This document shows, piece after piece, positions 3,997 through 7,421 of a stretch of DNA of 64,000 nucleotides (position 1 is its first letter; each line of letters begins with the position of its first letter). A program made the translations under genes and the position numbers. Origin of the DNA: a virus. Below the pieces are notes generated by a model. The model searched no databases and was not told where the DNA came from. It saw nothing but the letters and a program-made list of their open reading frames with translations. The stretch is from positions 1-64,000 of the IMG/VR virus record IMGVR_UViG_3300047089_000307; one strand, written 5' to 3'.

Positions 3997-4072
3997 GGCC
4001 GCGGTAGCGAGTTCGACTCTCGTCGCATCCACGCACGGGTGCGTACCTCAACGGATAGAGGACGGCACTTAT
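3997..4072 (+). ncRNA. circularly permuted tRNA-like module (T arm, closed acceptor stem, D arm)
   Basis: T arm 4007-4023; CGCATCC 4024-4030 pairs with GGGTGCG 4037-4043; D arm CCTC/GAGG. Confidence 0.75.
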
Positions 4073-4152: not shown

Positions 4153-4227
4153 CGGGTTGTAGCTTAGCTTGGTGAAAGCGCGCGGCTGGGGGCCGCGAGA
4201 GCGCAGGTTCGAATCCTGCCTGCCCGA
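4153..4227 (+). tRNA. tRNA-Pro(GGG)
   Basis: CGCGG-CTGGGGG-CCGCG. Confidence 0.9.
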
Positions 4228-4229
4228 CG

Positions 4230-4384
4230 AGGGAAGCAGGAAGGTGGGCTTAGAAGCAGCCATCCTTTAAAGAGCGCGGTCATGCTGCCTTTTGTCTGAG
4301 GGCGCCAGCGGTAAGAGCTGGCACGCTAGCGGGCGGAAGGGTAAACGGGGAATCGCCCTGGCGTAACAGCACACCTGTTTTCCT
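4230..4384 (+). ncRNA. ncRNA mimicking the 23S rRNA uL11-binding GTPase-associated centre (H43-H44), with insertion
   Basis: GGCTTAGAAGCAGCCATCCTTTAAAGA...GCGTAACAGC closed by an 11-bp helix 4230-4240/4374-4384. Confidence 0.75.
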
Positions 4385-4401: not shown

Positions 4402-4474
4402 CGGATACGAGGGAGACGGATAACCCGCCTGGTCTGGGGCCAGGAAAAACTCAGTTCGACCCTGAGGTATCCGA
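4402..4474 (+). tRNA. tRNA-Pro(TGG), C33
   Basis: CCTGG-TCTGGGG-CCAGG; acceptor CGGATAC/GTATCCG. Confidence 0.8.
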
Positions 4475-4549
4475 CTGAAGCGGTCCCCCGTCAGGGGGTT
4501 AAAAACGGGCGTGGCCGAGTGGCGCCGCTGTGAAAAGAACGCCCGCCAT

Positions 4550-4621
4550 GTGCCTTTGGCGTAAGGGGAAACGCGCCTGGTTGAAGCCCAGGGGTTCGCG
4601 GTTCGATTCCGTGGGGGTGCA
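4550..4621 (+). tRNA. tRNA-Phe(GAA)
   Basis: CCTGG-TTGAAGC-CCAGG. Confidence 0.85.
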
Positions 4622-7336: not shown

Positions 7337-7421
7337 GGCGGCGGAAGCAGGATGGCATTATGCGTCAGGTTGTGACCCTGTGTCCGCAAGGATTCGCGGG
7401 TTCAAATCCCGTTCGTCGCCC
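7337..7421 (+). tRNA. tRNA-His(GTG) with extra variable-arm hairpin
   Basis: loop TTGTGAC, G-1, TCC-GCAA-GGA variable arm. Confidence 0.8.

Follow-up and report, generated by a model that had tools for sequence, protein, structure and literature searches.

Why a phage should carry, among its tRNA genes, a short stretch that reads like part of 23S rRNA, and what such an RNA could do away from the ribosome, are the questions raised by this locus. The DNA analyzed here (the window) comprises positions 1 to 64,000 of the 158,651-bp virus record IMGVR_UViG_3300047089_000307, which represents an uncultured, high-GC tailed phage (window G+C 68%; portal, major head, and tape-measure genes present) whose major capsid protein shows no more than 34% identity to any cultured relative. 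An earlier note on this DNA had pointed to a stand-alone mimic of the GTPase-associated centre at 4230-4384. Here we show that the RNA of this 155-nt non-coding element is under selection, folds, and is autonomous, and that its likeness to the GTPase-associated centre extends to the tertiary contacts.

The two ends of the element together form a near-exact, self-closed copy of 23S helices H43 and H44, reproducing E. coli positions 1057-1102. The strings quoted in the earlier note (GGCTTAGAAGCAGCCATC at 4247-4264, TTTAAAGA at 4266-4273, and GCGTAACAGC at 4361-4370) were found in the window sequence, as was the 11-bp helix said to close the element (4230-4240/4374-4384), of which 3 pairs are G-U. 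The features of the element and its immediate neighbors, with E. coli numbering where applicable, are as follows.

4153-4228, + strand: tRNA-Pro(GGG), called by ARAGORN (Rfam tRNA 60.5 bits), 1 nt 5' of the element
4230-4240, + strand: 5' strand of the helix that closes the element, corresponding to 1045-1055 at the distal end of 23S H42; paired with 4374-4384
4242-4266, + strand: H43 copy (1057-1081), from Infernal alignment to LSU models; U1060 = 4245 and G1062 = 4247
4250-4258, + strand: loop of the H43 copy, UUAGAAGCA; A1067 = 4252
4267-4275, + strand: junction 1082-1090, with a UUAAA turn, G1087, A1088 (4273), G1089, and then C at 1090
4276-4360, + strand: insert of 85 nt between 1090 and 1091, i.e. 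in the 5' strand of H44
4276-4280 with 4352-4356, + strand: basal helix of the insert in the window copy, GCGGU/AUCGC, assigned by family register (alignment A1)
4288-4340, + strand: long hairpin within the insert, predicted by folding
4357-4360, + strand: linker CCUG before G1091 (UUUG in the family version)
4361-4370, + strand: copy of the H44 hairpin (1091-1100), loop GUAACA; A1095 = 4365
4371-4384, + strand: ACA (1101-1103) followed by the 3' strand of the closing helix (4374-4384)
4402-4475, + strand: degenerate tRNA-Pro(UGG)-like gene, 17 nt 3' of the element, with a 3-bp D stem and C33

The likeness of the element to LSU rRNA is far beyond chance. Infernal aligned LSU_rRNA_bacteria 1092-1150 to 4236-4296 (E 8.2e-8) and LSU_rRNA_archaea 1180-1233 to 4238-4290 (E 4.9e-6 in a 4.5-kb search), and the proposed resemblance to H43-H44 thus withstood a check of alignment significance. 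The bacterial match is the sole one in the whole virus record and scores 27.8 bits against a gathering score of 50 bits, short of what the rRNA gene models (RF02541/RF02540) call a gene. Given a single, partial LSU match (E 8e-8) and no flanking rRNA, the element is not an rRNA gene, in agreement with the earlier note.

Unconstrained minimum free energy (MFE) folding of 4230-4384 yields the closing helix, H43, and the H44 hairpin. Within the insert, an alternative MFE hairpin at 4346-4360 clashes with the basal helix of the family register, and the two folds disagree over these positions. The insertion itself had been recognized previously, at ~87 nt and in the 1088-1090 bulge; its presence stands, its size is 85 nt, and its site lies between 1090 and 1091. 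The window copy retains U1060, A1088, A1101, and the base-triple residues, and has the build of the family described below: a self-closing helix that flanks the H43 and H44 copies, co-orientation within a phage tRNA array, and an insert with a basal helix, a short linker, and A1101. It is atypical in its CCUG linker and in replacing the U1090 of the family by a C that allows no pairing with A1101. No IMG/VR contig matched a 23-mer pattern requiring C at 1090, by which close relatives of this variant were sought.

The phage has 33 tRNA genes, all on the strand of the element. Placement between two tRNA-Pro genes, as first described, holds for the upstream GGG gene; the downstream UGG gene is degenerate, being called only by ARAGORN at relaxed threshold (-ps) and not by Infernal at E values up to 10. 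Together with the upstream CGG and GGG genes, it would give the element a surrounding set of three proline isoacceptors. No ORF extends across the element, none of 60 aa or more starts downstream of it before the next tRNAs, and a promoter and terminator scan of the tRNA array returned nothing exceeding shuffle expectation. With co-oriented tRNAs and an upstream gap of 1 nt, the phage-encoded RNA does lie where tRNA processing can release it, as had been supposed.

Several other features of the record were observed in passing. Between tRNA-Ala(UGC) and tRNA-Pro(CGG), positions 3999-4068 give a sub-threshold match to the Y-RNA-like YrlA family (31.6 bits, E 4.5e-4), which we read as another tRNA-shaped RNA of the array. 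The ~75 nt directly preceding tRNA-Phe (4476-4549) have no assignment and no Rfam match but include two G+C-rich hairpins (CCCCC/GGGGG and GGGCG/CGCCC), and 7338-7420 is a tRNA according to Rfam (35 bits) that is absent from the ARAGORN list. Amid the phage structural region, a 594-aa ORF at 37457-39241 matches phage transposase families (phrog_506, E 2e-42).

The earlier note had treated the element as a singular curiosity. It instead belongs to a family with at least 141 distinct members of like architecture (111-435 nt, median 215), whose sources are IMG/VR contigs, cultured phages, and, in a few cases, bacterial contigs; the carrier hosts are spread over several phyla. A 28-mer of the 5' half matched the Pseudomonas phages UNO-G1W1 and pf16, in which the element occupies unannotated gaps of the tRNA arrays, and 25 IMG/VR contigs. 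A degenerate 26-mer of the same half matched 82 IMG/VR contigs, 81 of which hold stand-alone elements (both halves and their own closing helix) and one a true 23S gene; a search by the 3' half alone matched at least 119 contigs. Among 185,579 species genomes, a pattern excluding ordinary 23S genes found 9 stand-alone copies, most of them on MAG contigs with tRNA arrays. Sequence-checked cultured carriers are pf16, UNO-G1W1, XacN1, GAP32, and Aeromonas phage 4_4572; in GAP32, the element is flanked by protein genes and a U run directly follows its closing helix. Further Rak2-like giants are assigned by a BLAST match to the 5' half (Serratia phage BF, Pectobacterium phage CBB, the Erwinia pEa_SNUABM phages, and the Yersinia fHe-Yen9 phages), and both halves were seen in the IMG/VR copy of CBB (L121).

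The genomic setting is consistent across the family. A total of 783 tRNAs occur in 98 of the 141 loci, and all are co-oriented with the element, with none on the other strand. A tRNA lies within 100 nt of the element in 65/141 loci, and on both sides in 22, with typical gaps of 2-20 nt. Such co-oriented tRNAs at short gaps suggest a gene whose transcript is matured by tRNA-processing enzymes. Across the 141 loci, the element shows no preference for neighbors of a particular tRNA identity, and a comparison of 2,285 ORFs from these loci, clustered all against all, revealed no conserved protein partner, as no family was found in more than 8 loci and the ORF families recurring in up to 8 come from related phages.

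Some of these loci merit separate mention. On the complete chromosome of Acidithiobacillus sp. M4-SHS-6 (L094, 3549-3849), a full member lies within a 38-tRNA array between tRNA-Val and tRNA-Trp; recent capture from host rRNA was considered for this element and rejected, since it differs from the 23S of the same genome at 1058/1080, 1089-1090, and 1101. A member-bearing tRNA array in a Ruminococcus MAG bin (L088) also encodes a tmRNA and a CUA-anticodon tRNA of amber suppressor type, tRNA-Pyl according to ARAGORN (1758-2108 and 2448-2526, - strand). A GOLLD RNA (685-1176, - strand; 164.8 bits, above the gathering score) shares one tRNA array with a 113-nt family member (~4484-4600) in L038, and a tmRNA-like match (41 bits) adjoins the element of L007. 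Paenibacillus phage Pd_22F (L109; MZ092003.1, ~82.5-85.1 kb) contains ~2.6 kb of a genuine, unannotated 23S gene, which is host DNA or contamination and includes no family member.

The earlier note had named homologs with covariation as a check on its reading, and such homologs were found in phages. In alignment A1, comprising 60 sequences and five helices (closing, H43, lower H44, insert basal, and upper H44), 92.7% of cells were paired, compared with 70.2% in column shuffles and 36-55% when partners were slid; double-sided changes were found in 376 cells vs 126 in shuffles, and the covariation score was 0.591 vs 0.160. Neither the paired cells, the double changes, nor the covariation score observed was attained in any of 500 shuffles. 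The 9 inner pairs of the closing helix are ~90% paired across the family, use all four Watson-Crick types, and all covary, as do the first four pairs of the basal helix of the insert (60 sequences). Pair 1058-1080 covaries through all four Watson-Crick combinations (GC/UA/AU/CG), and G1091-C1100 and C1092-G1099 are present in 60/60 and 59/60 sequences, respectively.

Conservation at unpaired and tertiary positions was read from a 3'-anchored set (n = 87 among the matches listed), in which retrieval relied on the 3' half alone and the 5' half was located by fuzzy match (at most 9/36 mismatches). Among these listed matches, G1055, G1059, U1060, G1063, U1066, G1071, C1072, A1077, A1085, and U1090 are present in 87/87 and A1088 in 85/87, and pair 1082-1086 covaries (UA in 53, CG in ~21, and AU in ~12). 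We take the invariant residues to be those that build the tertiary fold of the 58-nt rRNA domain. A1095 is likewise kept, in 55/57 of the 5'-anchored elements and 139/141 overall; A1067 is A in 72/87 of the 3'-anchored matches listed and in 83-89% of members. It is the family-wide covariation, combined with the invariance of the tertiary residues, that identifies a selected, folded RNA.

Compared with the 23S GTPase-associated centre itself (end of H42, H43, and H44; E. coli 1051-1108; the 58-nt uL11/thiostrepton fragment), the element has the same secondary structure and loops, and all tertiary-contact residues checked are identical (U1060, G1071, C1072, A1077, A1085, A1088, G1091-C1100, and C1092-G1099). 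Unlike the 23S centre, the family element has a gene of its own, 111-435 nt long and free of other surrounding rRNA, and a closing helix of free sequence; it always has an insert at 1090/1091, and it is encoded in phage or mobile tRNA arrays. In true 23S genes, compared by pattern search across 101 genomes, the two halves adjoin each other, reading GCUCAC, and 1101 is U, where A is a signature of the family (53/56). Further family signatures are GU at 1089-1090 and the UUUG linker before G1091. These signatures of its own (A1101, GU at 1089-1090, and the UUUG linker) argue for a single origin of the family rather than repeated capture.

The same data bear on whether the elements could be functionless, i.e. 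captured rRNA fragments, assembly chimeras, or what is left of exons on either side of an intron or intervening sequence. It is true that rRNA genes can bear insertions, and one contig with a true 23S gene (L097; ~1000-1040, - strand, a short contig of a Caryophanon MAG) loses recognizable 23S sequence right after AAAGAGUG, at the insert site of the family, for which the cause may be an intron, an intervening sequence, or chimeric assembly. Against such an origin, 81 of the 82 IMG/VR matches to the 5' pattern stand alone with both halves and a closing helix of their own, the covariation reflects purifying selection on the fold, none of the inserts searched holds a group I/II intron or other Rfam family, and A1101 and GU at 1089-1090 are unlike host rRNA. 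We therefore regard a relic or artefact as extremely unlikely.

The insert between 1090 and 1091 is obligatory and highly variable, ranging from 47 to 368 nt across the family. Rfam searches covering the window insert and 17 related loci returned no family match in any insert, group I/II introns included, and Infernal found no second LSU segment in the window insert. An origin of the insert from neighboring 23S helices (H45) was also tried and rejected, as GCGGAAGGGUAAACGGGG, which resembles E. coli ~1122-1139, gave a BLAST E of 1.1 and did not rise above minus-strand controls. A further hairpin is inserted between A1077 and 1078 in about ten contigs (L113, L125, L131, L143, L157, L179, L193, L197, L202, and others), which makes the internal loop of the H43 copy a second site of expansion in the family.

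An obligatory insert invites the reading that the rRNA-like domain is simply a stable, nuclease-resistant joint of the RNA ends, and that the variable insert carries the function, its role perhaps differing between phages (aptamer, antisense, or protein-binding module). The insert is indeed modular and structured at its base, where the basal helix covaries, and a module consisting of CACCCC, a tetraloop hairpin, and GGUAAGG recurs in 36/141 elements. A mere clamp, however, could drift in a compensatory manner as the helices do, yet the loops and tertiary residues stay identical to rRNA, and this identity holds across phages that differ widely in G+C content and host; moreover, some inserts measure as little as 47 nt, and the inserts have no sequence in common. 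On balance, a folding clamp appears improbable.

The RNA probably acts off the ribosome as an imitation of the GTPase-centre site. The earlier note had proposed a phage decoy that would titrate uL11 or stalk proteins, translation GTPases, RelA, or thiopeptides, for example to blunt the stringent response, a reasonable if hypothetical idea. In the mechanism we favor, the element would be transcribed along with the tRNA array and released by tRNA processing, with cleavage by RNase P at the following tRNA and by RNase Z or E, with exonucleases, at the preceding one. The freed RNA would fold alone and work away from the ribosome as a mimic capturing a ligand of this rRNA domain. The first candidate is uL11, an exchangeable ribosomal protein required for RelA activation, whose C-terminal domain reads just those features that are invariant in the family. 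Capture of uL11 would shift uL11-dependent steps (RelA activation, GTPase turnover) in favor of the phage, and the insert may provide stability or an accessory contact. To this reading, in which the released RNA is a free-standing mimic and its putative capture of uL11 changes uL11-dependent steps for the phage, we assign a probability of roughly 45%.

We rank uL11 first because the invariant features are the folded core that uL11 reads and that is recognized across kingdoms. The U1060-A1088 pair is hydrogen-bonded by the L11 C-terminal domain, and the yeast domain is bound even by bacterial L11 (PMC2175356); if bacterial L11 binds the yeast domain, a generic copy should bind the uL11 of any host. 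The conservation seen here (U1060 in 87/87 and A1088 in 85/87, among the matches listed) favors recognition of the folded core, and there is less support for the A1067 cleft (thiostrepton, EF-G), given that this residue is A in only 83-89% of members. Several points weigh against uL11 capture. The obligatory insert of 47-368 nt is left unexplained, and indeed no binding model accounts for it. The 1077/1078 insertion sits in the stem bound by uL11 and might hinder binding. Ribosomal uL11 is already bound, so that a sponge could reach only free or exchanging protein. Benefit to a phage from lowered uL11 is conjecture, and no uL11 or RelA/SpoT homolog was found in the phage record that would tie the element to that pathway. 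The unpaired C at 1090 of the window copy is a further point on this side.

A related reading places the translational GTPases, rather than uL11 itself, at the centre. Here, the RNA with uL11, and perhaps the uL10-bL12 stalk, would form part of a "ribosome in pieces", a free platform that sequesters, idles, or activates EF-G, EF-Tu, IF2, RF3, or RelA. Both factor-contacting loops are present in the copy, and Munishkin and Wool reportedly found in 1997 that EF-G binds oligonucleotides of both sites, i.e. including the sarcin-ricin loop (SRL). An SRL-like hairpin does occur in the insert of L192 (AGUACGAGAGGA) and of L007 (AGUACGGGAGGA), which suggests that both halves of the factor-binding site are imitated in those two; the SRL-like regular expression matched 3/141 elements (L192, L007, and weakly L166) vs 0.5 expected in shuffles. 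Against such a trap, no more than 2-3 of 141 members are so equipped, and the regex scan of the window insert found no SRL copy. In addition, A1067, the key contact of EF-G and thiostrepton, is substituted in 11-17% of members, the closing helix has ~9 pairs of free sequence and no kink-turn and can therefore offer a partial uL10 site at best, and idled factors would harm phage translation too. We consider a GTPase or RelA trap to be quite unlikely, and uL11 capture remains the preferred assignment.

Instead of a ligand of the ribosome, the target may be an enemy of it, with the free RNA acting as a decoy substrate for a toxin or immune effector directed at the GTPase-associated centre (ADP-ribosyltransferase, nuclease, or methyltransferase), which it would soak up and so keep from disabling ribosomes in the infected cell. 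A parallel exists in phage tRNAs, which are thought to counter tRNA-targeting defences, and the element is found in tRNA arrays beside other look-alikes of translation RNAs (tmRNA-like RNAs, GOLLD). Hosts in several phyla are what would be expected for a universally conserved target, and the H44 loop is retained (A1095 in 55/57 of the 5'-anchored elements and 139/141 overall). A bacterial toxin with this target is also known: Tre23 ADP-ribosylates H44 at 1095-1098 and thereby blocks EF-G GTPase (PMC8661411). Tre23 is, however, an interbacterial T6SS toxin and no defence system. We know of no anti-phage system aimed at the GTPase-associated centre, and none was found in the literature searched. 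A stoichiometric decoy would, moreover, need to exceed tens of thousands of ribosomes, and the variable insert is again without explanation. A decoy substrate is thus possible but unlikely. In a more speculative form, somewhat doubtful though conceivable, the spare GTPase-associated centre would be a counter-measure in an unrecognized arms race over this site, acting as an effector decoy or, at its boldest, as a trans-acting uL11/stalk ribonucleoprotein (RNP), in which case the rare SRL-bearing members would be complete off-ribosome factor-docking sites.

Whichever ligand is bound, comparison with known RNAs sets the family apart. The leaders of r-protein mRNAs (L10 leader, L1 site of the L11 operon) follow a common principle, i.e. 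a non-ribosomal RNA imitating an rRNA protein-binding site, but they are cis-acting, lie upstream of r-protein genes, and are partial in their likeness, whereas the family element is a near-exact copy among tRNA genes. The window element is flanked by tRNA genes with no r-protein gene nearby, and no Rfam leader family matches it save for a chance-level L31 match (E 7.4). GOLLD, ROOL, tmRNA, and Y-RNA-like tRNA mimics share its niche, orientation, and presumed release by tRNA processing, but show no likeness in sequence or structure and have no Rfam match at the element. Protein-sequestering decoy RNAs such as 6S RNA, CsrB/RsmZ, and phage RNA anti-CRISPRs resemble it in proposed action, in which a free RNA stands in for the nucleic acid that a cellular protein normally binds; the thing imitated here is an rRNA domain, and its ligand is only a candidate. 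Among known objects, the rRNA domain itself is nearest to the family element, and among known principles, rRNA mimicry by r-protein leaders. Consistent with the earlier note, which knew of no description, Rfam 15 has no family for the element and full-text literature searches, including the text of a survey of structured RNAs in phages, returned no account of it; the family is widespread and, as far as we could find, undescribed.

If the inference of an off-ribosome mimic holds, viruses manipulate translation by means of an isolated, correctly folded piece of rRNA, a strategy that to our knowledge has been described for no phage or other virus. Given that several cultured phages carry the element (pf16, UNO-G1W1, XacN1, and GAP32; CBB by BLAST and partial sequence), the question is directly testable. 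If true, the 58-nt uL11 domain would gain a natural life outside the ribosome, and a new RNA class would join the tRNAs, tmRNA, GOLLD, and ROOL in phage tRNA arrays. The retention of the gene by phages of many phyla would also draw attention to a host process at the stalk base that is important enough to account for it, be it uL11 exchange, RelA activation, or a still unknown immunity targeting the GTPase centre.
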